From: Actinomycetes bacterium
GTDB lineage: Bacteria; Actinomycetota; Actinomycetes; JACCUZ01
Direction of reading: 5' to 3'
NCBI GenBank assembly: GCA_036269735.1
Contig: DATBDW010000111.1
Coordinates: 1 to 58,398, forward strand
Length of the DNA: 58,398 bases
The translations under genes and the position numbers were made by a program. How positions within the stretch are numbered: the stretch's first letter is position 1; each line of letters begins with the position of its first letter. The notes under the pieces are model-generated. The model saw only the letters and a program-made list of their open reading frames with translations, did not search any database and was not told the origin of the DNA. Below are positions 7,979 to 41,395 of this stretch, one piece after another.

Positions 7979-7983
7979 GCCGG

Positions 7984-13008: not shown

Positions 13009-13092
13009 CGCAGCACCGTATCCCCCGGTGCACCGAGCACCTGCTCACGCGTTGGCGAGGAGTTGTGTCCCGGGTCCCTGCTCGGATGTCCC

Positions 13093-13963: not shown

Positions 13964-14097
13964 CGGTTCGGATCCCTGGCCAGGTGGGGCATCCGACCCG
14001 CACCAGAGGTGGCGGAGGAGGGGTGAACCCCGGGTATCCTCCAGTTGTACGAGCAGCACGACGTCAGCCTGCCGCCTCGCCCAGGAGCGCTCCCAGC

Positions 14098-20535: not shown

Positions 20536-21300
20536 GTGTTCACCGTGGTGGTTGCTGACGACGAGCGAGTCTTCGCCGAGGCGCTGACTGGCCTGCTCGA
20601 GACCGACGAACGCCTGCGCGTCCTGTCAGCCGTGTCCACCGCGGAAGAGCTGGACGACGTCGTCCGCCAGGACGTGCCCGACGTCGCCGTCGTCGGATCC
20701 ACCCTCGCCTCCGGCTGCGGCTCGGTCGCTGCGCCGCCCTGGGCCGACGACGAGGGGATCACGCGGGTGCTCGTGGTCGCAGCAGAGACGCGGCTCGAGG
20801 AGGTCACGGCCGCGCTGCAGGCCGGGATCTGCGGCTGGGTGTCCAAGGACGCCACCGCCGACGAGCTGCGCGAAGCCGTGCATGCCGTCGCCAAGGGCGA
20901 CATCCACCTCCCGGCCACCATGATCACGGCTGTGCTACGGCTGCTCGCGGGGCGCGACCGTGGCCGGCGGGAACGGGACGTTCTGGCGACGCTCACGTCG
21001 CGTGAGCGCGACGTCCTCGGCTGCATGGTCATCGGGCTGAACCGCGCGGAGATGTCCCGACGCCTCTTCCTGTCGCCGAACACCGTGCGCACCCACATGC
21101 AGAACGTGCTCCGCAAGCTCGAGGTCCACAGCTCGCTGGCCGCTGCGGCCTATGCGCGCAGCCACGGCTTCGACGGGTCCGACCGGACCGGTCCGGCACG
21201 AGTCGTGGACCTCCGTGCGGCGGGTCGAGCGGGCTCACATCCGGCGCGGACAGTCAAGGACGGAGGGCGATGGATCTCAACGACGCCTGGCAGAGGGTAG
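20536..21300 (+). CDS. atypical LuxR-family response regulator lacking the phospho-acceptor Asp
   Basis: The start is GTG at 20536. The receiver-like N-terminus reads VVVADDE...PDVAVVGSTL, with Gly (codon 20695-20697) where the NarL D59 equivalent is expected. Ala replaces the conserved S/T (LVVAAE) and the Lys is kept (GWVSKD). The LuxR HTH reads LTSRERDVLGCMVIGLNRAEMSRRLFLSPNTVRTHMQNVLRKL. Confidence 0.8.
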   Translation: MFTVVVADDERVFAEALTGLLETDERLRVLSAVSTAEELDDVVRQDVPDVAVVGSTLASGCGSVAAPPWADDEGITRVLVVAAETRLEEVTAALQAGICGWVSKDATADELREAVHAVAKGDIHLPATMITAVLRLLAGRDRGRRERDVLATLTSRERDVLGCMVIGLNRAEMSRRLFLSPNTVRTHMQNVLRKLEVHSSLAAAAYARSHGFDGSDRTGPARVVDLRAAGRAGSHPARTVKDGGRWISTTPGRG

Positions 21301-22643
21301 TTCTGCGGCACCTAGCGCTGATCGGTGCCTGTGTCGTGGTTCCTGTACTGATCGTGATCGCCATGTCCTTCGGCGGCGCACACGACTACTCGAGCTCCGC
21401 GCGGGTCGCCGTCGGCACGCAGGCGGCGCGCAGCACCCAGGAGGCCGCGGCCCAGGCCGCGCAGGTCGGGGCGATCGCCACGAGCCGGACGGTAGTGGCC
21501 GAAGCTCTGCGGACGGCCGGTGTCGACCGCCCGGCGGGACGGACCGCATCGCAGGAGGTCACCGTGACCGGCCTCGGGTCATCGCCCGTGACCCGCCTGA
21601 CGGTCCGCGACCACGACGCCGGTGCGGCCGGAAGGATCACCCAGGCGCTCGCCGACCAGGTGGTTGCGGTGCTGGCCGGGCCGCGGGGCGACCTTGAGCG
21701 CAGCCGCGCCCAGGTCGAGGACCGGTTCACGAGCCTGCAGCTTCGGCGGGGCGACGTGCTGTCTGCCGCGCCGGCCCTGATGTCCGCCAAGGACAGTGCT
21801 GCCATCGCTGGGATCGACGACGAGCTGCGTGGGCTCGGCGACCAGCTTGTCGGGATCGACGCGCAGCTCGCCGCCACCATCGACCCACAGGTCGTGGACG
21901 ACGCGGGCCCCGCGTCACCAGTTCCCTCGTCGCGACTTCCCGACGCCACGCTGGCCGGCCTCCTGGGGCTCGTCGTCGGGCTCGGTATCGCAGCAGCCAG
22001 GGAGTCGGTGCACCCCACCGTCGTCGGCGTCGAGGCGCTGTCGAAGATCTTCTCCGCACCGCCGCTGGGCACCGTGGACCAGCGTGACGGAGTCCGACTG
22101 GGCATGTCCCTGGACCGGCTGGCGACCCGCGTCGACATCGCGGCGCGCCGGGTGGGTGTCAACGTCGTGGCACTCTCCGGACCGCTGCCCGAGGCGAAGC
22201 TAGCCGACCTGGCGCAGGACCTCGATTACCTGACGGCCGGCCACGCCCTCCCTCGGGTCGGCGACGCGCCGGTGAGCCGACTGCAGACCCAGCTGCAGCA
22301 CCGCCTGCAGATCCGCAACCAGAACGGAGCAGGTGCGGCGTCAGCCGTGGCCACCGAGGAACGACACCTCGGGGGAGCCGACCCCACCGTCACGTGGGAG
22401 ACGGTCCGCGTGCTGCCGTGCGACGAGCGCACGCTGTCTCTGCTGGGCCGCTCGGGCGGCGAGCGGATGGGCATGCTCGTCGTCGCCGCTCGCAGCACGC
22501 CACGCGACAGCCTGCTCCACATCGAGGACGTCGTCAGCACGACGGGCTGGCCGCTGATCGGGGTCATCTCCGTGGCGCCGGAGCCGCGGTCCTCGCGTGT
22601 CGTAGACACCGTTCGGCGCGCCGCCAAGGAGCTGTTCTCGTGA
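21270..22643 (+). CDS. Wzz/PCP-like polysaccharide co-polymerase with a degenerate BY-kinase-like C-terminal domain
   Basis: There are two TM helices (residues ~15-33 and ~226-243) flanking a helical, Ala/Gln-rich periplasmic region. The C-terminal part resembles a BY-kinase/ParA fold (MLVVAARSTPRDSLLHIEDVVSTTGWPLIGVISV). The Walker A position reads ALSGPLPEAK (22170-22199). There is no Tyr-rich tail. Confidence 0.65.
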   Translation: MDLNDAWQRVVLRHLALIGACVVVPVLIVIAMSFGGAHDYSSSARVAVGTQAARSTQEAAAQAAQVGAIATSRTVVAEALRTAGVDRPAGRTASQEVTVTGLGSSPVTRLTVRDHDAGAAGRITQALADQVVAVLAGPRGDLERSRAQVEDRFTSLQLRRGDVLSAAPALMSAKDSAAIAGIDDELRGLGDQLVGIDAQLAATIDPQVVDDAGPASPVPSSRLPDATLAGLLGLVVGLGIAAARESVHPTVVGVEALSKIFSAPPLGTVDQRDGVRLGMSLDRLATRVDIAARRVGVNVVALSGPLPEAKLADLAQDLDYLTAGHALPRVGDAPVSRLQTQLQHRLQIRNQNGAGAASAVATEERHLGGADPTVTWETVRVLPCDERTLSLLGRSGGERMGMLVVAARSTPRDSLLHIEDVVSTTGWPLIGVISVAPEPRSSRVVDTVRRAAKELFS

Positions 22644-23860
22644 CAGTCCTCCCGGCCGCCCAGGTCGAGCCGGCGCCGATCGGCTTCGCCACCACCACCA
22701 TCAGCGAGGAGGCGGTGGCCGCGGCCGCACGCGTCCTCCGTTCGGGCTGGGTCACGACCGGTCCCCAAACGGCCTGGTTCGAAGGTGAGTTCGCGCACAA
22801 GGTCGGCGCCCGGCATGCCGTCGGCGTGGCGTCGTGCACCGCGGCGATCGAGATGTCCCTGCGCGGCCTGCACCTGCCGCCGGGCGCCAAAGTCCTCGTG
22901 TCGACGATCACGTTCTGCGGAGCCGTCCACGCCATCACCCACGCAGGCCTGCGACCCGTCCTGGTGGACGTCGAGCCGGTGACGGCCATGCCGAGCGCCG
23001 AGACCACCGCGCGCGCGGCTTCCGAGTGCGGCGGCCCCGACGCGATGCTTGTCGTGCATCTCGCCGGGCACCCGGCACCGGTGGCCGAGCTGGCCGCGGC
23101 CGCCGGCTTGTCGCTGGACCGGGTCGTCGAGGACGCGGCGCACGCTCTGGGCGCGAGCATCGGAGGCCGGCCGGTGGGGACCCTCTCCCGAGCCACCTGC
23201 TTCAGCTTCTACGCGACCAAGAACCTGCCGATCGGGGAGGGCGGCATGGTCACCACCGACGACGAGGAGCTGGCCGCCTTCTGCCGCCGGACCCGCCTGC
23301 ACGGCATGTCGGCCGACGCGTGGCGCCGGTACCTGCCGGGCGGGTCCTGGCGGTACACCGTCGAGGAGGCAGGTCTCAAGGCCAACCTGACCGACCTCCA
23401 GTCGGCGATCGGGTCTGCACAGCTGCGCCACCTCGACCGCTGGCAGCGCCGCCGGCACGAGATCGCGCAGCGGTACGCCGAGGGGCTCGCCGGCCTGGAC
23501 GGGATCGGCCTGCCCGGCATCCCGCACGACGGCGAGCACGCCTGGCACCTCTACGTGATCCGGGTCCGCCCCGAGCTCGGGCTCAGCCGCGACGAGCTGG
23601 CGAGCCACCTGGGTGCTGAGGGGATCGGCACGTCGGTGCACTTCATCCCGCTGCACACGATGCCGCACTTCCGCGCAGTGGCCGAAGTCCCGCGGGGCGG
23701 ACTGCCGGTTGCTGACGCCGTCTTCGAACAGCTGCTCTCACTGCCGATGCACCCGGCCCTCTCCGACGACGAGGTCGACCGGGTCGCCCAGGCCGTGCGG
23801 AACGGCTCACGGCACGGTCTCAAGGCCGCGCTCACGTCTTCAGGAGGGGGATCAGCATGA
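22640..23860 (+). CDS. DegT/DnrJ/EryC1/StrS-family PLP-dependent sugar aminotransferase
   Basis: A GTG start overlaps the upstream stop. Motifs present are VLRSGWVTTGPQTAWFEGEFA, EDAAHALGA and FSFYATKNLPIGEGGMV, the last containing the PLP lysine. Confidence 0.9.
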   Translation: MTVLPAAQVEPAPIGFATTTISEEAVAAAARVLRSGWVTTGPQTAWFEGEFAHKVGARHAVGVASCTAAIEMSLRGLHLPPGAKVLVSTITFCGAVHAITHAGLRPVLVDVEPVTAMPSAETTARAASECGGPDAMLVVHLAGHPAPVAELAAAAGLSLDRVVEDAAHALGASIGGRPVGTLSRATCFSFYATKNLPIGEGGMVTTDDEELAAFCRRTRLHGMSADAWRRYLPGGSWRYTVEEAGLKANLTDLQSAIGSAQLRHLDRWQRRRHEIAQRYAEGLAGLDGIGLPGIPHDGEHAWHLYVIRVRPELGLSRDELASHLGAEGIGTSVHFIPLHTMPHFRAVAEVPRGGLPVADAVFEQLLSLPMHPALSDDEVDRVAQAVRNGSRHGLKAALTSSGGGSA

Positions 23861-25359
23861 GTGTCGAGGTGCCAACGCAGAGAGCCGAAGTGATCGACCT
23901 GCACGCCGACCGGCAGATGAGGGCGCTGATCGTCGGTGCAGGAGCGGCCGGGCGGACGCTTGCGCGCGACATCCTCGGGGTGACCAGCCTCGGGTTGTTG
24001 CCGGTCGGGTTCGTCGACGACGAGGACTCGCTGAGCGATCTCGAGCTGCCGCTGCTCGGGCCACTCCGCGACCTCACGGAGATCGTCATCGACCACCACA
24101 TCGAGGTGGTCGTGCTCGCGATCCCGTCGCTCCCGCCAGAGCGCTTCCGGGTCCTCGCCCTCGACGCGGCGCGCGGTGGCGCGCTGGTGCGCTACCTCCC
24201 GTCCTTCCTGGCCGCACTGCGCCGCGACATGGCCGGGAGCGACCTGCGGGCCCTGGACATCCGAGCGCTGATCGGCCGCAACGAGATGCACCTGGTGAGC
24301 CCGGAGGCACAGGCCCTCGTGAAGGGCCGACGCGTTCTCGTCACCGGCGCCGGGGGCTCGATCGGCAGCGAGCTGTGCAGGCAGGTCAACCGGTTCGGCC
24401 CGAGCAAGCTGTACATGCTCGACCACGACGAGTCCAACCTGCACCGGCTGCAGCTCGAGCTCTCGGGCGAAGCCCTGCTCGACGATGACGGGCTGGTCGT
24501 CGCCGACATCCGCGACCGCGGCCGGATCCACCAGCTCTTCGGAGAGCTCCGACCGGACGTCGTGTTCCACGCCGCAGCCCACAAGCACCTGCCGCTGCTG
24601 GAGAAGCACCCGTGCGAGGGCGTCAAGACCAACGTCATCGGCACGCAGAACCTGGTCGAGGCCGCACTCTGGTTCGGGGTCGAGCGGTTCATCTTCATCT
24701 CGACCGACAAAGCGGCCGACCCGACCTCGGTGCTCGGCGCGACCAAGAGGCTCGGCGAGCTGGTCGTCCGGGAGCACTCGCACGGGGCGGGGTCGTTTGC
24801 CTCGGTGCGGTTCGGCAACGTGCTCGGCAGCCGGGGGTCGCTGCTCACAGTCATCTCCGAGCAGCTGCGCAACGGCCTGGCGGTCACCGTCACCCACCCC
24901 GACGTCACGCGCTTCTTCATGACGATCGAGGAGGCGGTCGGGCTGGTGCTCGAGGCGGCCCGGATGGCCGACCGTGGCGAGGTGTTCGTCCTCGACATGG
25001 GCAGCCCGGTACGCATCGTCGACCTCGTCCGCACCTTCGCAGCACAGGTCCACCTCACCGATGTGGACATCCGCTACACCGGGCTGCGGCCGGGCGAGAA
25101 GCTGAACGAGGCCCTGTTCAGCGAGCACGAGGTGCGCGAGCCGACCGAGCACGAGCAGATCTTCAAGACCTGCCCGGAGGAGGCGGCCTGCACCCGACCG
25201 CACCTGTTCGAGGAGCTCGAGCAGGCGGCCGCGGCCAACGATCCGGCCCGGGTCAAGGCCGCATTGCGGCAGATGCTTCCCGGCTACGAGCCCGCCACGG
25301 CGATGCAGCCGGTGCTGGCCGGCGGGGCCGCACCGGCGCCGTACCCGGACTACTTCTGA
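23857..25359 (+). CDS. CapD/PglF/WbpM-type nucleotide-sugar 4,6-dehydratase (no N-terminal TM domain)
   Basis: Motifs present are VLVTGAGGSIGSELCRQV, MLDHDESNL, FHAAAHKHLPLLEKHP and FISTDKAADPTSVLGATKR. Confidence 0.88.
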   Translation: MSVEVPTQRAEVIDLHADRQMRALIVGAGAAGRTLARDILGVTSLGLLPVGFVDDEDSLSDLELPLLGPLRDLTEIVIDHHIEVVVLAIPSLPPERFRVLALDAARGGALVRYLPSFLAALRRDMAGSDLRALDIRALIGRNEMHLVSPEAQALVKGRRVLVTGAGGSIGSELCRQVNRFGPSKLYMLDHDESNLHRLQLELSGEALLDDDGLVVADIRDRGRIHQLFGELRPDVVFHAAAHKHLPLLEKHPCEGVKTNVIGTQNLVEAALWFGVERFIFISTDKAADPTSVLGATKRLGELVVREHSHGAGSFASVRFGNVLGSRGSLLTVISEQLRNGLAVTVTHPDVTRFFMTIEEAVGLVLEAARMADRGEVFVLDMGSPVRIVDLVRTFAAQVHLTDVDIRYTGLRPGEKLNEALFSEHEVREPTEHEQIFKTCPEEAACTRPHLFEELEQAAAANDPARVKAALRQMLPGYEPATAMQPVLAGGAAPAPYPDYF

Positions 25360-26327
25360 TGCGCGCCGTGCTGCAGACCGCCGGCGAGGTGGTCGAGGTC
25401 GACGCGGCAGGGTCCTGGGCGACCGAGGTGGTCCGCGACCTTCCACCCCGGGCGCCCGCCCCGCACGACGGCCCGCCGACCGTCCGGGTGCGTGACGGCT
25501 GGCCCGAGCAGCTGCTCGCTTCGGGCCGGCGGATGGGGCGGGGGATGAGGGCCCACGGCGGCGCCGTGGCGCTGACGTCAGCGTGCTCGTCTGGTGTCGA
25601 CCTGGATGTCAGAGCAACCGACGTCGTGGTGTCTGTCCTCGCGGCCCGGCGCCCGACGATCCGGGAAGCAACTCTGCACCGCGTGCTGCCCGAGCGAGCC
25701 CGCCTGTTGACCGCCGACGTGCTGCTGCACTACCCGGCGATCTGGCGCTCGGGCTGGCGCGGTCGGGCACCCCTGCACGCCGGTGCACTCGTCGTCGGGG
25801 GGCTGGGCGTCCTGGTGGTGGGCGCCAGCGGGGTGGGCAAGTCGACCCTGGCCATGGCCGAGGTCGGATCAGGTGCGACATTCGTCAGTGACAACCTGGT
25901 CGTCTCCGACGGCCGAAGCGCCTGGGGGCTGCTCGAGCCGGTCCGTGCGGCGGGAGGCGACGGGGCTCGCACGACACATGGTCGGCGGCTGGTCGAGGTG
26001 CCCGCCCGGCGGCTGTCGGCGCAGGTGGACCTGGTCGTGGTCCTCCGGCGCGAGGGCAGTGCGGTGCAGGCGCGGGAGATCGCCCCCGATGTCGCGGCCC
26101 GGGAGCTGACGGCGAGCACCTACGCGGCCGGCGAGCTGCGCAGGTACTGGGGCTTCGCGGCGACTCTTGCGGCCGGGACCGGTCGGGGTCCGGTGCACCC
26201 GCCGGTCGCCTCGGTCGCCGAGCAGGTCTGCTCGGGAGCTCCGTGCCTCGAGCTCGACCTGGGTGACCGGCCCGGTCCGCACCTCAGCCACGTGGTCGAG
26301 ACCCTCGGGGTGACCCAGTGGACGTGA
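25359..26327 (+). CDS. HPr kinase C-terminal-domain-like P-loop protein (HprK-related kinase)
   Basis: The ATG overlaps the capD-like stop (TGATG). The translation LHAGALVVGGLGVLVVGASGVGKSTLAMAE has its P-loop at 25821-25847 and is followed by FVSDNLVV. This is the pattern of the HprK/P C-terminal domain. Confidence 0.7.
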   Translation: MRAVLQTAGEVVEVDAAGSWATEVVRDLPPRAPAPHDGPPTVRVRDGWPEQLLASGRRMGRGMRAHGGAVALTSACSSGVDLDVRATDVVVSVLAARRPTIREATLHRVLPERARLLTADVLLHYPAIWRSGWRGRAPLHAGALVVGGLGVLVVGASGVGKSTLAMAEVGSGATFVSDNLVVSDGRSAWGLLEPVRAAGGDGARTTHGRRLVEVPARRLSAQVDLVVVLRREGSAVQAREIAPDVAARELTASTYAAGELRRYWGFAATLAAGTGRGPVHPPVASVAEQVCSGAPCLELDLGDRPGPHLSHVVETLGVTQWT

Positions 26328-27757
26328 CGGTGTTCACCCGTGCGATGGACGCTGCCACCGACCCGCGGGTGTTCGACAGCGCGGACCTGCGGGCGGACCC
26401 GAGTGCGCTCGACACGCTGCGGCGGGGCACCGCCGATGCCGACCTCGCGGCCCCGCCGGTCGTGCTCCCGGACTTCCACCACAAGCGCAAGCTCGAGATG
26501 CCGTCGAGCATCGCGGTGGCAACGCGTGAGTCCATCCGGCCCACCCTCACCAGCGCGTCGGTCAACTGCGGCATGGCGCTCATCGCCCTCAACAGCGACG
26601 TCCCGTCGCGCGCGGCGATCGACGCCTTCTACCGCGGTGTGCGTGAGCGCTACCCCTTCCCGACCACCAACCGGCGAGACCTCACCCGGTCCGAGGTCTT
26701 CCTGGCCGCGGCTCGGGGCGCGGGCTTCGGCCAGGAGCGATGGGGTGTCCACGACGACGACGTCGAGCGGATCGAGGAGCACGGGCAGCTCGATCTGGAG
26801 CCCTTCGGCGGCGAAGCGAGGCTGCGCAAGGAGCTGCCGGCGCTCGCCTTCCAGCTCGCGAGGCTCCGCTTCGGGACGGTCGGACCGAGCAACCACTTCG
26901 TCGAGCTGCAGACCGTCGAAGAGGTCTACGACCAGACGACGGCTGACCGCCTCGGCGTACGCGAGGGGCAGCTCGTGCTGCAGTACCACGCCGGGGGCGG
27001 TGTGCTCACCGGCGAGATCGGCCGCCTGTTCGGTCGCCGCAAGGACTACCCACGGCACCTGAGGGCGGCGATGTCGGTCGAGAAGCCGCTCGCGCACCTG
27101 GCCTCGGCCCGATCGGTCGCCCAGCTGCGCGATCGGCTGGCGCTGTACTTCAGCGACGGCTGCCCGCCCGTTCCCCGCCACAGCGACGAGGGGCGCCGCC
27201 TGATGCTGGCGAATGCGGCAGCGATGAACTACGGGTTCGCGTTCCGGATGGCGACGTACGCGGCGCTGCGGGCGCTGGCCGTCACCGCCTTCGGCGGGAC
27301 CCCGGGCCGGCTGGTCGTCGACTCGCCGCACAACTCGGTCTACGAGGAGGAGGTCGACGGCGACCTCGCCGTCGTCCACCGGCACAACTCCTGCCGAGCC
27401 TTCCCCGCCGAGCGGATGAGCCGCGGCACGGTGTTTGCCACCACGGGCCAGGCGGTTCTCGTGCCGGGGACGCACCGCACGTCGTCCTACCTTGCGGTGG
27501 CAGGCGAACGAGCCGCGGACAGCCTGCACTCCGCCTGCCACGGCGCGGGGACGGTCGTCCAGCAGTACGCCGATCGCGGCCTGTCGGCGTCGGACCCGGC
27601 CCGGCACTCGACCCTTCGATACCGCTACTCGGGCGCCGACCCCGAGGCGGTCCAGCACTATGACGACCGCGGCGTCGACGCGGCCGTCGACGTCCTGGTC
27701 TCCCACGAGCTGGTCCGGCCGGTCGCGCGGCTTCGGCCGATGGCGGTGCTGCACTGA
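26318..27757 (+). CDS. RtcB-family (RNA 3'-phosphate ligase fold) protein, divergent
   Basis: All RtcB signature blocks appear in order: LPDFHHK (Asp/His), SASVNCGMA (Cys), GTVGPSNHFVELQ (His), LQYHAGGG (His), SPHNSVYEE (His), VVHRHNSCRAF, LVPGTHRTSSY and SACHGAGT (the nucleotidyl-His equivalent, CAC at 27539-27541). The GTG start at 26318 overlaps the upstream gene by 10 nt; ATG at 26345 is an alternative. Confidence 0.75.
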   Translation: MDVTVFTRAMDAATDPRVFDSADLRADPSALDTLRRGTADADLAAPPVVLPDFHHKRKLEMPSSIAVATRESIRPTLTSASVNCGMALIALNSDVPSRAAIDAFYRGVRERYPFPTTNRRDLTRSEVFLAAARGAGFGQERWGVHDDDVERIEEHGQLDLEPFGGEARLRKELPALAFQLARLRFGTVGPSNHFVELQTVEEVYDQTTADRLGVREGQLVLQYHAGGGVLTGEIGRLFGRRKDYPRHLRAAMSVEKPLAHLASARSVAQLRDRLALYFSDGCPPVPRHSDEGRRLMLANAAAMNYGFAFRMATYAALRALAVTAFGGTPGRLVVDSPHNSVYEEEVDGDLAVVHRHNSCRAFPAERMSRGTVFATTGQAVLVPGTHRTSSYLAVAGERAADSLHSACHGAGTVVQQYADRGLSASDPARHSTLRYRYSGADPEAVQHYDDRGVDAAVDVLVSHELVRPVARLRPMAVLH

Positions 27758-28668
27758 TGACCACTCTTCCGCTTCAGCGCGTTCGCCGGCCGGACCTCGC
27801 CGAGCTGCTCAGCAACCGGGCAGCCGAGGTCGTCGACCTCCGGGCTGGCAGCAGGCCGATGACGCACCGACTCACCGTGGCCGACCGCGCGACCGGATGC
27901 GAGCTGCTCAGTGCCGTGGCCGCGTCGTGCGAGGAGGGGGTGCCCGCCGTCGAGGAAGAGGGGCGTCTGCTGGTCGAGCTGCGCCGGGGTGACCACGGCC
28001 CCGGAGTGCGGGTCGCATCGCGTCACGTCGGTGTCGCCGAGCACGCCGGGCGCCCCGTGCTCCTGATGACGCCTCTTCCCGGACGGCGGCTGTCCGCCAG
28101 GGCCCGGCTCGGCAGCCGCGACGTGGCGGGCGTCTTCGAGTGGCTCGCCGCGTTGCGGGATGGGCCTCGCCTCGACCGGGTCCCGATCGACCTCGGTCGG
28201 GAGGCGGTCGAGATCCTGACGGCTCAGTCGGTGTCCGACCCCGTCGTGCTGCGCGTGCTGGAGCGCGTCATGGGCTCGCGGGGCCGGCTGGAGGACGTCC
28301 TCGTCCGGCCGGCCGTCACGCATGGCTCGCTGGCGATGGACAAGATCGCCGTGGCGGGCGGCCGGGTCGTCGGTGTCGAGGACTGGGCGTGCGCGACCTT
28401 GGCGGGCGACCCGGTGCGTGACCTCGCGGGGTTCGCCGTGGCCTGCGCCGGTCTGGACCTCGTGGCCCTGCTGAACGGCCGCAACGCCGTCCCGTCGACC
28501 CTTCGCCGCGGCGTCCGTGCCGGCCTTCGGTCCCTGGGCGTGGACCCACGGCTGTACGCCGACGTCCTCGTGCTCGCGGTTGCCGAGTGGGCCGCCGAGC
28601 CCGCCCTGCTCCGCCGCCATGCCGGCCTCGCCGGGCTCCTCTCCTGCACGCCTGCCATCAAGGAGTGA
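27757..28668 (+). CDS. aminoglycoside-phosphotransferase (APH/protein-kinase-like) fold protein with a degenerate catalytic loop
   Basis: The ATG overlaps the rtcB-like stop (TGATG). The segment THGSLAMDKIAVAGGRVVGVEDWACATLAGDPVRDLAGF aligns to the APH motif HGDxxxxN...DWE...GDPxxDLA. Ser replaces the catalytic Asp and Lys replaces the Asn. Confidence 0.6.
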   Translation: MTTLPLQRVRRPDLAELLSNRAAEVVDLRAGSRPMTHRLTVADRATGCELLSAVAASCEEGVPAVEEEGRLLVELRRGDHGPGVRVASRHVGVAEHAGRPVLLMTPLPGRRLSARARLGSRDVAGVFEWLAALRDGPRLDRVPIDLGREAVEILTAQSVSDPVVLRVLERVMGSRGRLEDVLVRPAVTHGSLAMDKIAVAGGRVVGVEDWACATLAGDPVRDLAGFAVACAGLDLVALLNGRNAVPSTLRRGVRAGLRSLGVDPRLYADVLVLAVAEWAAEPALLRRHAGLAGLLSCTPAIKE

Positions 28669-32895: not shown

Positions 32896-34209
32896 GTGAC
32901 CGCGCTCGACCTGTGGTCGCCACCCGGAGCCACTCCGGCGCCGCGGGCGCCGTGGTACGGGCGCCTGCGACTGACGCCTGTGGGGCTGGTCGCCGGGCTG
33001 GTCTGCACCGCCATCGTCATCCTGCCGGTGCTGGTGCCCTCGGGGCCGGCAAACACCGGGCCGGTCGACCTGCTCATCCTGGTGGCCCTTGGCGTGCTCG
33101 CCCTGGACAGCCTCGCCTACCGGACGGTGCTGCACCTCCCGTACGGGCTGCCGGTCGCGGTGCTGATCGTCGCCGGCGGCTTGGCCGCGCTGGATCGGGG
33201 ACGGGCGCTGACGTCCGGGGTAGCCCTGGTGCAGGACGTGGTCCTCCTCCTGTGGGGGGCCACCGTCGCCTCGCTCGGTCGTAACCCGGTGCTCCTGCGG
33301 CGATTCCTCCGGCTCTGGGTCGCGACCGCGACCACCTGGTCGGTCGTCCTCGTCGTGGCCGTCAACGTCGGGTTCGACCGGGTCGCCGGCATCAGCGCGG
33401 ACGAGGGTGGGCGCGCATCGCTGACCTTCGGCGACCCCAACCGCGCCGGCAGCTACTTCGCGACGTCGTTCCTCCTTCTCATGGCCGCCGGCTGGCCGAC
33501 GAAGAGGGCCGCCCGCTGGTCCTGCGGTGCGATCCTGCTCCTGGCCACCGCGTACACCGGGTCGAACGCGGCGATCGTCAGCCTGGTGGTGGCATGCCTG
33601 TTCGGTGCCGGCGTGCGCTACTGGCGACGGCACGGCGTGATCTCGCTGGCCCTCGCGGGTGCCGTCATCGCCGCGCCGATCGCCCTGGTGCTCACGACCG
33701 TGGACGTCTCGTCGTTGGCGCAGCGAGCCACCCACGGCGGCCGGATCCTCGCCAACTCCGTCGCCCGCAGCGACAAGGGCGCCAGCGACCGCGTGCTGCT
33801 GGTCTCGGAGAACCTCGCGATCTACCGCAGCCACGGCATCGAGGGCGTCGGACCCGATGGCACCAAACCACTGCTCTCGGCCGAGCAGGCGCCGTACGTC
33901 AAGGAGGCGCACAACGACTACCTGGCGGCCCTGCTCGAGCGCGGGGTGCTCGGTGCGATCGGGCTGATCGCCCTCTGGGTAGCGGTCATCGCGCGCTGTC
34001 TTCCGCTGTGCAGCCGCCGACCCGATCCGCGTCTGCTCGTGGTCATGGCCCGTCCGGAGATGCTCGCGGGCGCGGCGCTCGCCGCGGCGACCTTCGGCTG
34101 GTTCCACGAGGCACTGCACTTCCGTCACGTGTGGGTCGTCTTCGGCCTCGTGGCGGCCACGTCGCTCATGGCAGGTCGAGAGACATCGGGCGAGGGAGGG
34201 GGAGCATGA
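32896..34209 (+). CDS. O-antigen ligase/polymerase (Wzy-like) family membrane protein
   Basis: The 437-aa ORF has about 10-12 hydrophobic helices and a periplasmic loop carrying KEAHNDYLAALLERGVLGAIG, the Wzy_C/O-antigen ligase signature. Confidence 0.8.
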   Translation: MTALDLWSPPGATPAPRAPWYGRLRLTPVGLVAGLVCTAIVILPVLVPSGPANTGPVDLLILVALGVLALDSLAYRTVLHLPYGLPVAVLIVAGGLAALDRGRALTSGVALVQDVVLLLWGATVASLGRNPVLLRRFLRLWVATATTWSVVLVVAVNVGFDRVAGISADEGGRASLTFGDPNRAGSYFATSFLLLMAAGWPTKRAARWSCGAILLLATAYTGSNAAIVSLVVACLFGAGVRYWRRHGVISLALAGAVIAAPIALVLTTVDVSSLAQRATHGGRILANSVARSDKGASDRVLLVSENLAIYRSHGIEGVGPDGTKPLLSAEQAPYVKEAHNDYLAALLERGVLGAIGLIALWVAVIARCLPLCSRRPDPRLLVVMARPEMLAGAALAAATFGWFHEALHFRHVWVVFGLVAATSLMAGRETSGEGGGA

Positions 34210-35153
34210 AGGTTCTCGTCACCGGCGCAGCCGGGTTCATCGGCTCGCACCTGTGCGAATGGCTCTTGGCACAGGGCGACGACGTCCAGGGTCTGGACGC
34301 CATGACCGACTTCTACGACCCGTGGCGCAAGGAGCAGAACATTCGCGCGCTGCTGGACTGGGACCGCTTCAGCCTGTCCCGGGACGACCTTCTGGAGGCG
34401 CCCCTCGACCGGATCCTGGACGGCGTCGACGTGGTCTACCATCTCGCCGGCCAGCCGGGAGTGCGGCCCTCGTGGGGAGAGGAGTTCGGGGTCTACCTCA
34501 CGCGCAACGTGCTCGCCACCCAGCGGCTGCTCGAGGCAGCCCGACAGGCCTCGCTGTGGAAGTTCGTCTATGCCTCGTCGTCCTCGGTCTACGGCAATGC
34601 GGAGACGCTGCCCACCGTGGAGACGCTCCGGCCGCAGCCGGTCTCGCCGTACGGGGTCACGAAGCTGGCGGCCGAGCACCTGTGCGAGCTGTACCGCGAG
34701 AACTTCGGCCTGCCCACGGCGTCCCTGCGGTTCTTCACGGTGTTCGGCCCGCGGCAGCGGCCCGACATGGCCTTCTCGCGGCTGGTGACCGCTGCGTTGC
34801 GCGGTGAGCCCTTCCCGCTCTACGGGGACGGTGAGCAGACCCGCGACTTCACCTACGTCAGCGACATCGTGCATGCACTGCGCCAGGCGGCGCTCAGCCC
34901 ATGGTGCGGGGTGGCCAACCTCGGTGGCGGCTCGCGGGTATCAATGAACGAGGTCGTCGACGTCGTCTCGTCGCTCGCACACCCCGTCCAGCTCGATCGG
35001 CTGCCGACGGCCAAGGGGGATGTGCGGCACACTGCCGCCGACACGACGACGGCGCGGCTCGCGTTCGGCTACCGGCCGACGACCTCCGTGGCCGAGGGAC
35101 TCGCGGCGATGGTGGCCGCCGAGCGGGCGATGACCGAGATGGCGACGTCATGA
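34206..35153 (+). CDS. NAD-dependent nucleotide-sugar epimerase (UDP-glucuronate 4-epimerase-like)
   Basis: Motifs present are MKVLVTGAAGFIGSHLCEWLL, GLDAMTDFYDPWRKEQNI, ASSSSVYG and the SDR YxxxK motif in SPYGVTKLAAE. The ATG overlaps the upstream stop. Confidence 0.8.
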   Translation: MKVLVTGAAGFIGSHLCEWLLAQGDDVQGLDAMTDFYDPWRKEQNIRALLDWDRFSLSRDDLLEAPLDRILDGVDVVYHLAGQPGVRPSWGEEFGVYLTRNVLATQRLLEAARQASLWKFVYASSSSVYGNAETLPTVETLRPQPVSPYGVTKLAAEHLCELYRENFGLPTASLRFFTVFGPRQRPDMAFSRLVTAALRGEPFPLYGDGEQTRDFTYVSDIVHALRQAALSPWCGVANLGGGSRVSMNEVVDVVSSLAHPVQLDRLPTAKGDVRHTAADTTTARLAFGYRPTTSVAEGLAAMVAAERAMTEMATS

Positions 35154-36457
35154 CCGCGACCTGGACGCCGACTCCGCCGCCAGCGGTCGACCCGGCCCAC
35201 TTGCCACCGCAGCCCGAGCCGGAACGCGTCAAGGTGCTACACGTCATCACCCGGTTCTGGGCCGGCGCCGGTGGCAACACGTTGCTCACCGCGATGGGCA
35301 CCGATCCAACCCGGTTCGAGGTGTGGGTCGCCGGCTGCCCCGGCGGGGACCTGTGGCCCCGCGCGGAGGACGCGGGGATCCGCTGCGTCGAGGTGCGCGG
35401 GTTCCGCGAGGTGCTACGCCCTGGCGACGTCGCCGTCCTGTGGCGACTCGTCCGGCTCATGCGCCGCGAACGGTTCACCGTCGTGCACACCCACTCCGCC
35501 AAGGGTGGATTCCTGGGCCGCGTCGCTGCTTGGCTCACGCACACGCCGGTCGTCGTGCACACATTCCACGGGTTCTCCGTCCATGACGGGCTGTCGCGGC
35601 GCCGGACAGTGCTGTACAACCTGCTCGAACGGTCCGTGCGGCCCTGCACCGACGCGTTCCTTGCCGTGTCACCCCGGGTCGCCGCCGAAGCGGTGCAACG
35701 GCGGTTCGCACGCCCCGGCTCGGTCAGCGTCGCCCCCTCCGCGGTCGAGCTGAACGACGTCCCGATCGACGGTGACCGGACCGCGCTGGTGCGCATCGGG
35801 TTGGTAGGAGCCGGCCCGGTGATCGGCACGGTCGGCCGGATCGACCACCAGAAGTCCCCGCTGGACTTCGTCCGGATGGCCGCCCGGATCGCCCTCGACC
35901 ATCCGGACGCGAGGTTCGTGATGGTGGGCGACGGTCCGCTCGCCGGAGAGGCGAAGAAGCTGGCCGACCATCTCGCCGTACCACTGACGGTGACCGGGTA
36001 CCGCACCGACGCCCCCCAGCTCTCCGCCGCGATGGACGTCTTCGTCATCACCTCGCGTTACGAGGGGCTCGGCCGAGCCCTGACCGAGGCGCTGGGGTCG
36101 GCCCGCCCGGTCGTGGCGACCGCGGTGAACGGGGTCCCCGACCTGGTCGAGCCCGGGGCGACCGGCCTGCTGGCAGGAGTGGGGGACGTCGAGGCGCTGG
36201 CGACCTGCGTGCGCTGGATGCTGGACCACCCGGCGGGCGCCCGGGCCATGGGTCTGGCCGGCCGGGAGCGGGTGCGTGTCGGCTTCACCCCCGAGCTGAT
36301 GTGCTCGGCGGTGGAGGCCTGCTACCGCGACCAGCTCGGGCTGCCGGCCCCGGCGGTCGTTCCCGCGGCGACCGGCCGGCACGTGATGGTCGTCCCCGAT
36401 GCCCGGACGAGCCCGATCCGCGTGCCGATGTCGACGGTGGTCGCTGGTGGGCGTTGA
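35150..36457 (+). CDS. GT4-family (GT-B fold) glycosyltransferase
   Basis: The ATG overlaps the upstream stop. Motifs present are VLHVITRFWAGAGGNT, HTHSAKGGFLG, GRIDHQKSPLDFV, and SRYEGLGRALTEALGSARPVVATAVNGVPDLV, which is EX7E-like. Confidence 0.85.
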   Translation: MTATWTPTPPPAVDPAHLPPQPEPERVKVLHVITRFWAGAGGNTLLTAMGTDPTRFEVWVAGCPGGDLWPRAEDAGIRCVEVRGFREVLRPGDVAVLWRLVRLMRRERFTVVHTHSAKGGFLGRVAAWLTHTPVVVHTFHGFSVHDGLSRRRTVLYNLLERSVRPCTDAFLAVSPRVAAEAVQRRFARPGSVSVAPSAVELNDVPIDGDRTALVRIGLVGAGPVIGTVGRIDHQKSPLDFVRMAARIALDHPDARFVMVGDGPLAGEAKKLADHLAVPLTVTGYRTDAPQLSAAMDVFVITSRYEGLGRALTEALGSARPVVATAVNGVPDLVEPGATGLLAGVGDVEALATCVRWMLDHPAGARAMGLAGRERVRVGFTPELMCSAVEACYRDQLGLPAPAVVPAATGRHVMVVPDARTSPIRVPMSTVVAGGR

Positions 36458-37922
36458 CGCGCGGACCACCCGCCCGACGGCACGGGCCGTCGCGGCGGGC
36501 TCGACGTGGCAGCTGGTGACGTTCCTGGCGCGGTTCGTCGGAGGGTTCGCCGCTGTGGTGCTCGTTGCTCGGGCAGGCGGTCCCGCGGAGCTGGGCACGC
36601 TGCAGCTCGCCCTCACGGTGGCCGGGCTGTTGATGACGGTCGTCGGCTTCGGTCTGCCCAACCTGATCGCCCGCGAGATCGCCCGGGCCCCCGACCAGTC
36701 GCGGGTCTGGATCGAGGCCACGGTCTTCACGGCGCTGGTCGCCGGCGCCGGGGTGACCGTCGTCACGGCGGTCGCCCCGGCGCTGTGGGGCGCCGACGCC
36801 CGGGCAACCCTGCCGTTCGTGGTCGCGGTCGCCTCGCTGGCGTTCGATGCGAGTGCCCGTGCCCTGTTCGCAGCCTTCTGGGGCTGGGAGCGGATGCACC
36901 TGGAGTCGTTCGCCACCTGGCTGCAAGAGGGCTCGTACGTGGTGAGCGCAGTGCTCGTGGTCCGCGGTGGCGGCGGGGCCACCGCAGTCCTGGTCTGTTA
37001 CACGGCGACGCGCGCTCTTGGTGCGGTGGCCGGCTGGCTGCTCGCGAGCCGGTGGGTCGGCGCGGTGCTGATTCCCAGGCCGCACCGGCTCTTCCTCGTC
37101 CCGACGCTACGCCGTGCGGCCCCGTTCGCCGCCGACGACCTGCTCTCGATGGCCTACATCCGGGCCGACTCGGTCCTGCTCGGGGTGATGAAGGGCCAGA
37201 CCGCGGTCGGTCTGTACCAGGCCGGGACCAACCTCGTCCTCAACTGCAACGTCTTGGCCCGGATGTTCAACAACGCGCTCTACCCGCGGATGAGTCGGTG
37301 CTGGCCGGACCAGATCGAGCGGCTGCGTCGCCTGCGGGTGTTCTCGCTGCGGGTACTGGCCGTGATCGGGCTGCCCATCACAGTGGCCTCCCTCCTGCTG
37401 GCGAGCCGGATCATCCCAGCCGTGTACGGCGACGGGTTCGACTCGGCCGTGTTCTGCTTCCAGCTGCTCGCCCTCGTGATCCCGATGCGGATGCTCGGGC
37501 ACACCCTCGGAACGACCCTGACCGCGGCCGACGCGCAGACCTGGCGCACCTGGGGCGTCACCGCCGCCGCGGCGGCCAACATCGGGCTGAACCTCGTGCT
37601 GGTGCCGTCCCTGTCGTATGTCGGAAGTGCTTGGGCCACCGTCGTCACCGAGCTGGGGCTGCTGGTGGGTTACTCGGTCCTGGTAGGCCGCCGCACCGGA
37701 TCGTCGGGTCTGGTCGAGGCGCTCGCGGTGCCGGCGGCAGCGTGCGTGCCGCTCGCGGCCGTGCTCGTGGCGCTGGACGGAGCCCCGCTCCTTGTCGCGG
37801 TCGCAGCGGGGGCCGTCGGCTACGCCGCCGGCATCGCGGCGGCGCTGGGCCTGCGGTTGCTCGTGGTCCCGGATCGTGGTCCGAGGGCAGCGGTCTCGGC
37901 GTACCTCCTGGGGGGCGCATGA
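36447..37922 (+). CDS. Wzx-like polysaccharide flippase (MOP superfamily)
   Basis: The ORF is about 490 aa with 12-14 hydrophobic helices and begins TWQLVTFLARFVGGFAAVVLVARAGGPAELGTLQLAL. The start is uncertain: GTG at 36447 or ATG at 36399. Confidence 0.75.
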   Translation: MGVDARTTRPTARAVAAGSTWQLVTFLARFVGGFAAVVLVARAGGPAELGTLQLALTVAGLLMTVVGFGLPNLIAREIARAPDQSRVWIEATVFTALVAGAGVTVVTAVAPALWGADARATLPFVVAVASLAFDASARALFAAFWGWERMHLESFATWLQEGSYVVSAVLVVRGGGGATAVLVCYTATRALGAVAGWLLASRWVGAVLIPRPHRLFLVPTLRRAAPFAADDLLSMAYIRADSVLLGVMKGQTAVGLYQAGTNLVLNCNVLARMFNNALYPRMSRCWPDQIERLRRLRVFSLRVLAVIGLPITVASLLLASRIIPAVYGDGFDSAVFCFQLLALVIPMRMLGHTLGTTLTAADAQTWRTWGVTAAAAANIGLNLVLVPSLSYVGSAWATVVTELGLLVGYSVLVGRRTGSSGLVEALAVPAAACVPLAAVLVALDGAPLLVAVAAGAVGYAAGIAAALGLRLLVVPDRGPRAAVSAYLLGGA

Positions 37923-38545
37923 CCGACGCCCGGACCCTGAACTGGCGTTTCGTCGTCCCTGCGGCGACCGGAAGCCTGCTGGTGCTGCCGGTCGGTGACG
38001 AGCTGGTGCCTGGGGCAGTGCAGCCGGCACCGAACGGAGCCGGCCTACGCGGCGTGCTCGCCGAAGGGCCGTTCTCCGGCGTGGTCGCCGTCGACGTGTC
38101 GGCGTGGTCCGCTCGCGCCGGTGTCGGCAGTGTGCGCCTGTTGGGGCAGCTCGCCGATGCGGTGGCCCCGGGCGGATATCTCTATGCGGGCTTCCCGGGC
38201 CGCGGGTACCCGTTGAACGCCGTCAGCCGCGGAGCGGTCCTGCGGTTCCGGGCGACGTCGGTCCTGCGCCGGCACGGGCTGCGGCTCGAGTCGGCCTACG
38301 TGGCTCTCCCCGCGGCGTCCTGCCCAGCCATCATCGTGCCGGTGGACAGCCCGAGCGAGCTTGACTACGTGCTGCGGAACCTGAGCTTTCCGTACGCGCC
38401 GTCGACCCGCCCGTTCGCGGGTCGCGCCCGGCATGCCCTCGTCCGGGCCGGGCAGGCCGCCGCAGTCCGGGCACCGCACCGGCTGCGTGTCGCCGGCTCG
38501 CCGGCTCACGTGGTGCTCGCGGTTCGGCCGGGGGTGCCGGCATGA
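37919..38545 (+). CDS. hypothetical protein (208 aa), possibly a remnant of a Rossmann-like methyltransferase fold
   Basis: The gene is translationally coupled on both sides (ATGA overlaps). The only suggestive segment is VDVSAW...LADAVAPGGYLYAGF. No confident family assignment can be made. Confidence 0.4.
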   Translation: MTDARTLNWRFVVPAATGSLLVLPVGDELVPGAVQPAPNGAGLRGVLAEGPFSGVVAVDVSAWSARAGVGSVRLLGQLADAVAPGGYLYAGFPGRGYPLNAVSRGAVLRFRATSVLRRHGLRLESAYVALPAASCPAIIVPVDSPSELDYVLRNLSFPYAPSTRPFAGRARHALVRAGQAAAVRAPHRLRVAGSPAHVVLAVRPGVPA

Positions 38546-40742: not shown

Positions 40743-41395
40743 GCCGGGTCACCGCACCGACCGTCGGCGGCACCCGGGTCAGCCCCGGCCGCCGCGCGCT
40801 GGACGTGGCCGTGTCACTGACGGCGTTGATGGCTCTGCTGCCGATCCTGCTCGTCCTCGCGGTGCTGGTGCGGTGCACGAGCCGCGGCCCGGTCCTCTTT
40901 CGCCAGGTTCGCGTGGGTGCCGGCGGCCGGCCGTTCGTCATGCTCAAGTTCCGCAGCATGTCGGTCGGTGCGCTGGGCGGCCCCCAGGTGACGACGCAGA
41001 CCGACCAACGCATCACCGCGCTCGGGCGGGTGCTGCGCCGGAGCAGCCTCGACGAGCTGCCGCAGCTGGTCAACGTGCTGCGTGGCCAGATGACCCTCGT
41101 CGGTCCCCGTCCGGAGACCGTCGATCTCGCGGCCCGCTACCCCGATGACTGCCGCTGGGTGCTCCAGCACGCACCGGGCCTGACCGGTCCCTGTCAGATC
41201 CGGCTTCGGGACCGCGAGGCCCTGCCGCCCGAGGCTGTCGACGCCGAGGACTACTACCTCTCGGTCCTGGTGCCGCGCCGCGTCGCGCTGGACATGACGT
41301 TCCTGGGCCGGCCCACCGTCACAGCGACGATGGCGGTCCTGCTGGAGACCTTCGGCTACCTGGTCGGCCGGCGGCCGGCCGGGCTCGACGTCTGA
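40739..41395 (+). CDS. small monotopic phosphoglycosyl transferase (PglC/WbaP C-terminal-domain 'bacterial sugar transferase' family)
   Basis: There is a single N-terminal re-entrant helix (LDVAVSLTALMALLPILLVLAVLV). Motifs follow: GPVLFRQVRVG, FVMLKFRSM, DELPQLVNVLRGQMTLVGPRP and PGLTGPCQI. Confidence 0.88.
   Translation: MSRVTAPTVGGTRVSPGRRALDVAVSLTALMALLPILLVLAVLVRCTSRGPVLFRQVRVGAGGRPFVMLKFRSMSVGALGGPQVTTQTDQRITALGRVLRRSSLDELPQLVNVLRGQMTLVGPRPETVDLAARYPDDCRWVLQHAPGLTGPCQIRLRDREALPPEAVDAEDYYLSVLVPRRVALDMTFLGRPTVTATMAVLLETFGYLVGRRPAGLDV

Follow-up and report, generated by a model that had tools for sequence, protein, structure and literature searches.

Introduction

RtcB ligases join a phosphomonoester to a hydroxyl by way of an enzyme-histidine-GMP intermediate and an activated R-O-P-P-G species, and to our knowledge every RtcB enzyme characterised so far has a nucleic acid as substrate: they serve in tRNA splicing, the repair of rRNA and tRNA, the unfolded-protein response and the capping of DNA. 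In the LicA/LicC/LicD pathway of phosphocholine decoration, the logic of which is shared by CDP-alcohol pathways at large, the APH-fold kinase LicA makes a phospho-alcohol, which a nucleotidyl-transferring enzyme activates as a nucleoside diphosphate (NDP) derivative before the phospho-group is transferred onto a glycan hydroxyl to give a phosphodiester. WbdD, the terminating enzyme of an O-antigen pathway, combines a methyltransferase with a kinase of the protein-kinase/APH-like fold. An RtcB paralogue with a dedicated adjacent partner gene is described for the RtcB2-PrfH ribosome-repair module (PMC13166195). Here, we analysed a 58,398-nt contig (DATBDW010000111.1 of assembly GCA_036269735.1, from an Actinomycetes bacterium of the lineage JACCUZ01), referred to as the window in its whole length, in which the genes for an HprK-like P-loop protein, a non-canonical RtcB-family protein and an APH-like protein lie together in a Wzx/Wzy operon of 16 genes for a cell-surface glycan.

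The RtcB-like and HprK-like proteins very probably form a dedicated enzyme pair of the glycan pathway and not an RNA ligase. An earlier sequence-only reading had described the three genes as a coupled trio inside a Wzx/Wzy operon and had speculated that they perform phosphate-activated ligation or phosphorylation on a sugar-phosphate polymer or on the adjacent secreted protein. The operon setting was borne out, the flanking genes matching DegT, Polysacc_synt_2 and Wzy_C. The pairing of an HprK-like with an RtcB-like protein, which that reading could not connect with any described system, also has none in the searchable literature: among open-access full texts, no paper connecting RtcB with glycan loci or with an HprK-like partner was found.

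Results

Fold and active site of the RtcB-like protein

The RtcB-like protein matched PF01139 with 157.2 bits against a cut-off of 27, its residues 48-478 aligning with positions 16-424 of the 426-position profile. The AlphaFold2 model, built from a 16-sequence alignment, reached a moderate predicted local distance difference test (pLDDT) value of 68.7; its low-confidence stretches fall in the remodelled regions, and the shallow alignment may lie behind them. Foldseek searches with this model returned RtcB structures only (16 matches, E 6e-20 to 9e-17, template-modelling score ~0.6). The protein is a true RtcB-fold homologue. NCBIfam provided no subfamily-level name for it or for the HprK-like protein, and the source databases label members of the clade 'tRNA-splicing ligase RtcB' or 'hypothetical protein'.

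The residues were mapped by alignment to Pyrococcus horikoshii RtcB (PhoRtcB), for which the roles of the metal and GTP residues are known from structures (PMC9745838) and the contacts of Arg238, Arg190, His242 and Gln194 with the 5'-OH polynucleotide strand have been described (PMC8051266). The census covered 232 full-length relatives (120 actinobacterial and 112 broad-clade members) at 25-70% identity. In PhoRtcB numbering, the GMP nucleophile His404 is kept as His408 of the window protein, the metal-1 ligands Cys98/His234/His329 as Cys84/His224/His338, and Glu206, which contacts guanine N1/N2, as Glu196; His203 of metal site 2 and the phosphate contacts Asn202 and Asn330 are kept as well. 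The equivalents of these eight residues are conserved in 100% of the 232 relatives.

Metal 2 is bound in PhoRtcB by Asp95, Cys98 and His203, and Asp95 serves as an M2 ligand in all of the PhoRtcB-GTP-metal structures (PMC9745838). This aspartate is Ser81 in the window protein and is found in none of the relatives, which have Ser (220), Ala (11) or Glu (1) at the position. Arg238, which contacts two phosphates of the 5'-OH strand in PhoRtcB (PMC8051266), is replaced by Gly228; Arg occurs at this position in 0/232 relatives, where Gly, Glu or Asp is found apart from one Ser and one Ala. Arg190 corresponds to Leu180, with Leu or Phe in 120/120 actinobacterial proteins and Arg in 12/112 of the broad clade, while His242 corresponds to Gly232 and Gln194 to Arg184. 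The guanine O6 contact Lys480 corresponds to His479; the actinobacterial lineage has His, Asn, Thr, Ser or, once, Arg here, and 106 of the 112 wider-clade members have Lys.

The sequence-only reading had taken the protein to be catalytically competent, with every RtcB signature kept. The motif blocks on which it relied (PDFHHK, NCG, GPSNHF, YHAGGG, PHNS, HRHN..RAF, PGT..TSSY and CHGAG) are all present in the translation, but the change of Asp95 to Ser at metal site 2 had escaped it, as had Arg238 to Gly, Arg190 to Leu, His242 to Gly and Lys480 to His. Since the eight kept residues are invariant while Asp95 and Arg238 are never kept, the residue pattern is, as far as alignment can tell, that of a re-tuned, still-selected active site which no longer grips a polynucleotide.

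The HprK-like partner

The HprK-like protein scored below the cut-offs of all related models: 30.1 bits against 33.3 for PF07475 (Hpr_kinase_C), over residues 139-182 (the P-loop region) only; 29.7 against 240 for TIGR00679; and, for the EPS- and RiPP-associated families of NCBIfam, 28.7 against 200 for HprK_rel_B, 19.4 against 200 for HprK_rel_A and 16 against 125 for ScmC. Just 6 of 32 family members matched PF07475 at E<=1e-3. The AlphaFold2 model (pLDDT 90.8) retrieved HPr kinase/phosphorylase (HprK/P) and PEPCK structures only in Foldseek, with 28 matches at E<=1e-3 and a best value of ~1e-6. In the homologue alignment, the P-loop G-x-G-K-S/T is conserved over 155-162, and the invariant residues are Gly158 and Gly160 within it, His140 ahead of the Walker A motif, Asp178-Asn179, Glu193 and Arg196. 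This protein is an unmodelled family of the HprK/PEPCK-like P-loop superfamily.

The segments GASGVGKST..SDN of the HprK-like and HGSLAMDK of the APH-like protein, quoted in the sequence-only reading, are present in the translations. Its family and fold assignments for the three proteins hold in Pfam profile searches (E-values in Table 1) and, for the RtcB-like and HprK-like models, in Foldseek.

Conservation of the gene set in Actinomycetota

One genome per species was scanned for RtcB proteins with the signatures SVNCGMAL or GP[ST]NHF[VI]EL, and 200 species were found to encode one. From these, 80 loci were taken, of which 57 had full flanks of +-10 kb, and genes were counted by tblastn. The gene set recurred in these 57 loci from many genera: HprK-like and GT4 genes in 56/57 each, DegT and CapD in 55/57 each, APH in 54-55/57, the polysaccharide co-polymerase-like (PCP-like) gene and the LuxR regulator in 53/57 each, and Wzy in 51/57. 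The beta-helix protein was found in 31-32/57, at variable positions. The Actinomycetota loci showed three gene orders; the window order, including the degenerate APH gene and the beta-helix gene, recurs in L087 (84% RtcB identity) and in L006.

These data indicate that the HprK-like, RtcB-like and APH genes are fixed members of the operon but not always neighbours, and that the core is HprK-like plus RtcB-like (plus APH). The co-conservation suspected from the overlapping genes is thus not accidental, whereas the trio as such is lineage-specific. Of the partners named by the sequence-only reading, the HprK-like and RtcB-like proteins stand as the core; the APH gene that is widely conserved as a partner lies farther downstream (APH375 in Table 1) and was not included in that reading.

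Concerning the two APH genes, the one adjacent to the RtcB-like gene (APH303) matched PF01636 with 25.9 bits and APH375 with 36.9 bits, against a cut-off of 23.2. APH303 lacks the catalytic HxDxxxxN motif, as does its L006 orthologue, which reads HGCLCQEH; L087 has a syntenic 305-aa gene at this position, and an extra APH gene after the RtcB-like gene was found in none of the other gene-order architectures. APH303 is a degenerate accessory paralogue confined to near relatives of the window. In APH375 the motifs HGDFWMGN and VDWE are intact, 63/65 orthologues keep HGDxxxxN, and the best sequence match in the PDB is maltokinase.

A small gene, 'sm', always stands directly ahead of the conserved APH kinase. 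It had no Pfam match (E<=1) and chance-level PDB profile matches only. A profile of 15 'sm' orthologues matched the C-terminal half of a class-I methyltransferase of L092 (E 9e-8 in a 21-sequence search), and this genuine methyltransferase adjoins the APH gene of that locus. By sequence similarity, 'sm' is probably a decayed methyltransferase partner. It was also considered as a PqqD-like peptide chaperone and showed no similarity; it matched the methyltransferase C-terminal half instead. The APH partner that is conserved across loci is the pair of APH375 and 'sm', not the adjacent HGSLAMDK protein.

Other lineages, fusions and control loci

A HMMER library search at E<=1e-30 retrieved at least 146 representative clusters (50% identity) of the clade, from Actinomycetota, Chloroflexota, Dormibacterota, Acidobacteriota and other lineages. 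All 46 of the 46 aligned full-length representatives, taken from the top 150, lack Asp95. A profile of distant members retrieved proteins of Acidobacteriota (Polarisedimenticolia), Anaerolineae, Chloroflexota, Thermoflexia, Verrucomicrobiae and Patescibacteria.

The partner gene was found in other lineages as well. In a Dormibacterales and a Gaiellaceae genome, the HprK-like gene stands immediately upstream of the RtcB gene in DegT/GT4/Bac_transf/Wzy/Wzx loci. Over all nine loci from other lineages (Dormibacterales, Gaiellaceae, Polarisedimenticolia, Anaerolineae, Chloroflexota, a 'Patescibacteria' bin and three further contigs), it was directly upstream of the RtcB-like gene in 9/9, always in a glycan cluster. 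The HprK-like assignment was checked with profile hidden Markov models, with E-values from 1e-15 to 1e-155 overall and from 1e-15 to 2e-70 in the seven distant loci. The neighbours in these seven are glycan or lipid-glycan genes, among them GT2/GT4, Wzy, Wzx or an ABC exporter, and UbiA, together with MBOAT, a Hepar_II_III lyase, a deacetylase, PAP2 and an LtaS/EptA-type sulfatase-fold enzyme. An extra kinase-type gene is usual: APH in L088, L090, L092 and L093, and a PPDK_N/PEP-utiliser phosphotransferase in L089, L091 and L174. The beta-helix protein is present in 2/9 of the other-lineage loci (L086 and L093).

Several of these loci have features of their own. Among the loci of Chloroflexota type and of low G+C, L089, L091 and L174 carry HprK-like, RtcB-like and Wzx genes with UbiA prenyltransferases and the PPDK_N/PEP-utiliser, which is rifampin-phosphotransferase-like; L174 also has a geranylgeranyl-reductase-like gene. 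The UbiA/PPDK_N company in these three hints at an unusual lipid carrier. In the Dormibacterales locus L085, a formyltransferase and a PIG-L deacetylase follow right after the RtcB-like gene (12706-14332). The actinobacterial operons lack an N-acyl transferase that would act on the predicted 4-amino sugar, the amine of which may be free or otherwise modified in Actinomycetota.

Gene fusions were found in two forms. P0264 (885 aa) and P0345 (755 aa) join an HprK-like protein to RtcB, and P0344 (996 aa) joins a Wzx flippase to RtcB, the equivalent of the essential Cys98 being Asp. Three other candidates (P0252, P0256 and P0270) resemble translations of high-GC sequence with frameshifts and were left out of the fusion count.

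A metagenome scan with the pattern GNHF[LI]ExQx[VI] retrieved mostly canonical RtcBs and was used as a negative control. Canonical loci (n=43) were those with an RtcB that has both Asp95 and Arg238, and with 1.2 kb or more of sequence ahead of the gene; an HprK-like gene within +-6 kb was found in 0/43 of them. Six loci without Asp95 came from the same scan; the HprK-like gene is directly upstream in 4/6, and the other two (L096 and L099), which are glycan clusters, have a CDP-alcohol phosphotransferase gene directly downstream. Every inspected context of an RtcB lacking Asp95 was a glycan cluster.

The clusters of L096 and L099 contain GT2/GT4/PMT_2/Wzx genes. L096 has two tandem RtcB-like genes without Asp95, followed by the overlapping CDP-alcohol phosphatidyltransferase gene (5920-7362, 7891-9339 and 9305-10168), and L099 has one with an overlapping gene of the same type (5593-6906 and 6866-7675).

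Organisation of the operon and its other products

The operon is counted as the 15 genes spanning 21270-41395 and the LuxR-type response regulator at their head (Table 1). The window is high in G+C (~0.71-0.75), and the flanking housekeeping genes are of actinobacterial type (metG, an MMPL gene, an rpfB-like gene, ispE, glmU, pth, ppc, mfd and mazG). The genes are coupled almost throughout by ATGA, GTGA or TGATG overlaps, with gaps of <=2 nt elsewhere. Bac_transf, GT4, Wzx (Polysacc_synt) and Wzy_C are all present, as in a Wzx/Wzy-dependent locus, and the Wzz match at the N-terminus of the co-polymerase-like protein is weak.

The junctions around the three genes were found as the sequence-only reading had placed them. 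The TGA stop of the CapD-like gene (25357-25359) shares base 25359 with the ATG of the HprK-like gene (TGATG), the GTG start of the RtcB-like gene at 26318 gives a 10-nt overlap with the HprK-like gene end at 26327, and base 27757 is common to the RtcB-like stop and the APH-like ATG (TGATG). The APH-like stop at 28668 is followed, after a 2-nt gap, by the ATG of the beta-helix/PKD gene at 28671, with AAGGAG ahead of it. The starts at 25359 and 26318 are backed by the N-termini of homologues.

Table 1. Genes of the glycan operon in the window, with positions, strand and supporting matches.
Feature	Position	Strand	Remarks
LuxR-type response regulator, locus head	20536..21300	+	Response_reg + GerE; start uncertain
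Polysaccharide co-polymerase-like (PCP-like), 457 aa	21270..22643	+	weak Wzz match, E 0.069
DegT/PglE-type sugar aminotransferase	22640..23860	+	PF01041 E 8e-104; GTG start overlaps upstream stop
CapD/PglF-type NDP-sugar 4,6-dehydratase	23857..25359	+	Polysacc_synt_2 E 1.5e-99
HprK/PEPCK-fold P-loop protein, 322 aa	25359..26327	+	Hpr_kinase_C E 4e-7, below gathering score
Non-canonical RtcB-family protein, 479 aa	26318..27757	+	PF01139 E 1e-45
Degenerate APH-fold paralogue (APH303), 303 aa	27757..28668	+	PF01636 E 1e-5; HGSLAMDK replaces HGDxxxxN
Secreted beta-helix/PKD protein, 1407 aa	28671..32894	+	Beta_helix, NosD, PKD, DUF1565
Wzy-type polymerase	32896..34209	+	Wzy_C E 2.6e-12
NAD-dependent epimerase/dehydratase	34209..35153	+	Epimerase E 2.4e-55
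GT4 glycosyltransferase	35150..36457	+	Glyco_trans_1_4 / Glyco_transf_4
Wzx-type flippase	36399..37922	+	Polysacc_synt E 8e-27
Small conserved open reading frame 'sm', probable degenerate class-I methyltransferase remnant	37919..38545	+	profile match to L092 methyltransferase
Second APH-fold kinase (APH375), motif intact, 375 aa	38542..39669	+	PF01636 E 4.5e-9; VHGDFWMGN, VDWE
Conserved lipoprotein of unknown fold (u361), 361 aa	39657..40742	+	orthologue consensus with lipobox-like AGC
Small PglC-like phosphoglycosyl transferase (Bac_transf), last operon gene	40739..41395	+	tblastn 53% identity to a Dactylosporangium Bac_transf gene

Rfam and ARAGORN searches over the window found no RNA gene in the operon. 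The sole RNA gene of the window, tRNA-Gln(TTG) at 13890-13963 (+), is located a short way upstream of the glmU-like gene and has no relation to the glycan operon. PADLOC defence-system models gave no match for six operon proteins (E<=0.01), and an anti-phage defence reading was dropped on this ground.

The lipoprotein u361 had nothing in Pfam (E<=1) and chance-level matches only against PDB sequences; it was detected by tblastn in 38 of the 57 related loci. Some of its Trp, Asp and Glu residues are invariant, and it is always located between Wzx and the phosphoglycosyl transferase. Most of the co-polymerase-like protein likewise gave no Pfam match at E<=1. By eye, its C-terminal ~200 aa resemble a BY-kinase/MinD-like domain without the Walker A lysine (segments read as VNVVALSGPLPEAK...MGMLVVAARS...PLIGVISV), and this C-terminus could be a pseudo-tyrosine-kinase domain.

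The beta-helix/PKD protein showed a weak AlgG-like match and is an accessory, probably glycan-processing protein (lyase or epimerase-like). A role as an obligate substrate was rejected on the ground of its occurrence in little more than half of the Actinomycetota loci by tblastn and its variable positions there. A second, shorter beta-helix protein (NosD/chondroitinase-B-like; 41530-42906, minus strand) converges on the operon end together with a DUF1996 protein (42971-43837, minus strand), and the same pair follows the operon in L010. Just downstream of the operon, also on the strand opposite to it, is a protein with metallo-beta-lactamase, SCP2-like and Rieske domains (44012-46006, minus strand); a similar Lactamase_B/Rieske protein is encoded at the equivalent place in Dactylosporangium L001 (17253-18878, minus strand).

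Discussion

This study provided evidence that the functional core of these loci is an ancient two-enzyme module, consisting of an HprK/PEPCK-fold phosphotransferase and a non-canonical RtcB, which an APH-fold kinase assists in most lineages. The neighbourhood, the fusions and the active-site remodelling all point to glycan biosynthesis, and the RtcB-like clade probably acts on phosphate of a cell-surface glycan and not on RNA. The earlier proposal of a phosphate-activated ligation on a sugar polymer fits this evidence.

From the linkage, the fusions, the context and the residue pattern, we infer a scheme of phosphorylation, guanylylation and phosphodiester formation, to which we give a rough probability of 0.4-0.45. 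The module would act at the cytoplasmic face, before Wzx flipping. The HprK-like protein and/or the intact APH kinase would phosphorylate a hydroxyl, either on the undecaprenyl-diphosphate-linked repeat unit or on a small alcohol or sugar destined for it. From GTP, His408 of the RtcB-like protein, with its intact metal-1 site, would form the enzyme-His-GMP intermediate and pass GMP onto the phosphomonoester, giving R-O-P-P-G. Attack by a second hydroxyl would then leave a phosphodiester-linked substituent or bridge on the glycan and release GMP. Overall, this would be RtcB chemistry on a substrate other than nucleic acid.

Several observations fit this scheme. RNA breaks are already phosphorylated, whereas a glycan hydroxyl would need a kinase, and the obligate partner here is of a kinase fold. 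The Wzx-RtcB fusion fits an action on the lipid-linked unit before flipping. CDP-alcohol phosphotransferases bring together an NDP-activated phospho-alcohol and a hydroxyl to form a phosphodiester, the same outcome as that of the final RtcB reaction; the pairing of some clade members with such an enzyme fits an NDP-activated phospho-intermediate. HprK/P can use pyrophosphate as a phosphate donor and RtcB guanylylation releases pyrophosphate, and speculatively the two enzymes might be chemically coupled through it.

Other points weigh against the scheme. No phosphate-containing polymer has been tied to the operon. Two kinases exceed the need of so simple a pathway. The loss of the metal-2 aspartate could impair GTP chemistry, as M2 binds the beta and gamma phosphates in PhoRtcB, and the replacement of the guanine contact Lys480 in the actinobacterial lineage makes the nucleotide used uncertain; the structural model of the RtcB-like protein is of moderate confidence only. 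The fusions come from metagenome gene calls, and the one with Wzx, having Asp for the essential Cys, may be inactive. Finally, the link between the partner and the residue loss is not absolute, since P0345, L098 and L135 combine an HprK-like partner with an RtcB that bears Arg238.

It is rather unlikely that the RtcB-like protein stops after GMP transfer, acting as an unconventional nucleotidyltransferase that converts a sugar-1-phosphate or alcohol phosphate supplied by a kinase into R-O-P-P-G, a GDP-activated donor for a separate transferase of the GT4 or CDP-alcohol-phosphotransferase type. Stable 3'pp5'G caps left on DNA by RtcB have been described (PMC10630183). The protein has lost the residues by which the 5'-OH nucleophile strand is positioned, two loci lacking Asp95 carry a CDP-alcohol phosphotransferase in place of the HprK-like gene, and no nucleotidyltransferase for the second sugar is encoded in the conserved actinobacterial set. 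APH-fold enzymes include anomeric sugar kinases, in line with the maltokinase match of APH375. On the other hand, Asn202, which contacts the attacking hydroxyl in PhoRtcB (and also GTP), is fully conserved; the Wzx fusion suggests a membrane lipid-linked intermediate and not a soluble precursor; and the actinobacterial operons hold no obvious dedicated phosphotransferase. A module directed at protein, in which the HprK-like enzyme phosphorylates Ser on the co-polymerase, Wzy or the beta-helix protein and the RtcB-like enzyme nucleotidylates it or attaches glycan, as regulation or phosphoglycosylation, is improbable. Characterised enzymes of the HprK family phosphorylate Ser on HPr, with lasso-peptide precursors as a second substrate class, and the commonest actinobacterial order places the HprK-like gene directly after the co-polymerase-like gene; the next gene after the RtcB-like one is often that for the beta-helix protein. 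The adjacency to the co-polymerase is lost, however, in other gene orders and phyla, and the beta-helix gene goes undetected by tblastn in ~45% of the actinobacterial loci and in 7/9 of the other-lineage loci, making the adjacent protein an unlikely substrate, contrary to the sequence-only reading. A secreted protein would also need to be modified before export, and no conserved candidate substrate peptide was found.

Two further explanations, both very improbable, take the RtcB-like protein either as an ordinary enzyme or as no enzyme at all. An RNA repair or splicing ligase that merely sits in the glycan operon, or is co-regulated with it, would agree with the full-length PF01139 match, the RtcB fold and the intact His nucleophile; it is opposed by the glycan synteny and HprK-like partner that hold across several phyla, by the absence of this partner from the 43 canonical loci, by the loss of the polynucleotide-binding Arg238 (often acidic instead), Arg190 and His242, and by an operon without an RNA gene. 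No rtcA, rtcR, archease or prfH domain was found in the available Pfam gene tables of the loci or the scanned open reading frames of the window. The doubt already cast on an RNA substrate by the sequence-only reading was thus reinforced by the lost nucleic-acid contacts, the operon contents and the canonical loci. A catalytically dead protein, serving as scaffold or substrate-binding subunit of the assembly machinery, would explain why a metal-2 ligand present in every PhoRtcB-GTP-metal structure is never Asp in the clade, and in the member fused to Wzx the essential Cys is gone as well. Yet eight other catalytic, metal and GTP residues are invariant in 232 sequences at 25-70% identity, the pattern expected of purifying selection on an active site, and the uniform Ser/Ala at Asp95 looks re-tuned rather than decayed.

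The favoured scheme of phosphorylation, guanylylation and phosphodiester formation would, if true, widen the chemistry attributed to the RtcB family, assign a role to the HprK-like genes that have long stood unexplained in polysaccharide loci and identify a modification step in a conserved actinobacterial envelope glycan. It would also add a new route to phosphate-bridged glycans beside the NDP-alcohol, sugar-1-phosphate and lipid-derived phosphotransferases. The enzyme family and the operon type are known; the chemistry, if confirmed, would be new to glycan biosynthesis. In its most general form, for which we see somewhat less than an even chance, a large branch of RtcB across several phyla, without Asp95 and the polynucleotide-binding arginines, would act off RNA together with an HprK-fold kinase, as a GTP-driven phosphorylate-then-ligate machine that makes phosphodiesters or NDP-activated phospho-intermediates on lipid-linked glycans. 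For annotation, the label 'tRNA-splicing ligase RtcB' given by genome pipelines to clade members calls for caution.

Compared with canonical RtcB (P. horikoshii, E. coli and human RTCB), the window protein shares the fold, full-length homology, the His-GMP nucleophile, the metal-1 ligands and the equivalents of His203, Asn202, Asn330 and Glu206. It differs in having Ser, Gly, Leu, Gly and His where the canonical enzymes keep the metal-2 Asp95, Arg238, Arg190, His242 and Lys480, and canonical loci are without the HprK-like partner, while the genes lacking Asp95 are found in glycan loci. With HPr kinase/phosphorylase and the HprK-related kinases, the HprK-like protein has in common the PEPCK-like P-loop fold and a Walker A motif GxxGxGKS/T with a preceding conserved His and a following Asp motif. 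The latter is DN and not DD, the N- and C-terminal regions are distinct, and the partner is an RtcB-like enzyme instead of HPr or a PqqD-like protein.

The kinase-activate-transfer logic of LicA/LicC/LicD is alike, without sequence relationship to LicC or LicD; unlike in that pathway, activation would proceed through the covalent His-GMP of an RtcB fold, and the same enzyme may also carry out the final transfer. The pairing of a methyltransferase or methyltransferase-like protein with a kinase recalls WbdD and is seen here in 'sm' with APH375 and, in L092, in a genuine methyltransferase with APH. In contrast to WbdD, the genes are split, the methyltransferase is probably degenerate in Actinomycetota, and the pathway is Wzy-dependent and not ABC-transporter-dependent. 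The RtcB2-PrfH module is likewise an RtcB paralogue specialised by an adjacent partner, in which RtcB2 still ligates RNA, namely 16S rRNA; in the loci described here, the partner is of a kinase fold and the context is glycan synthesis.

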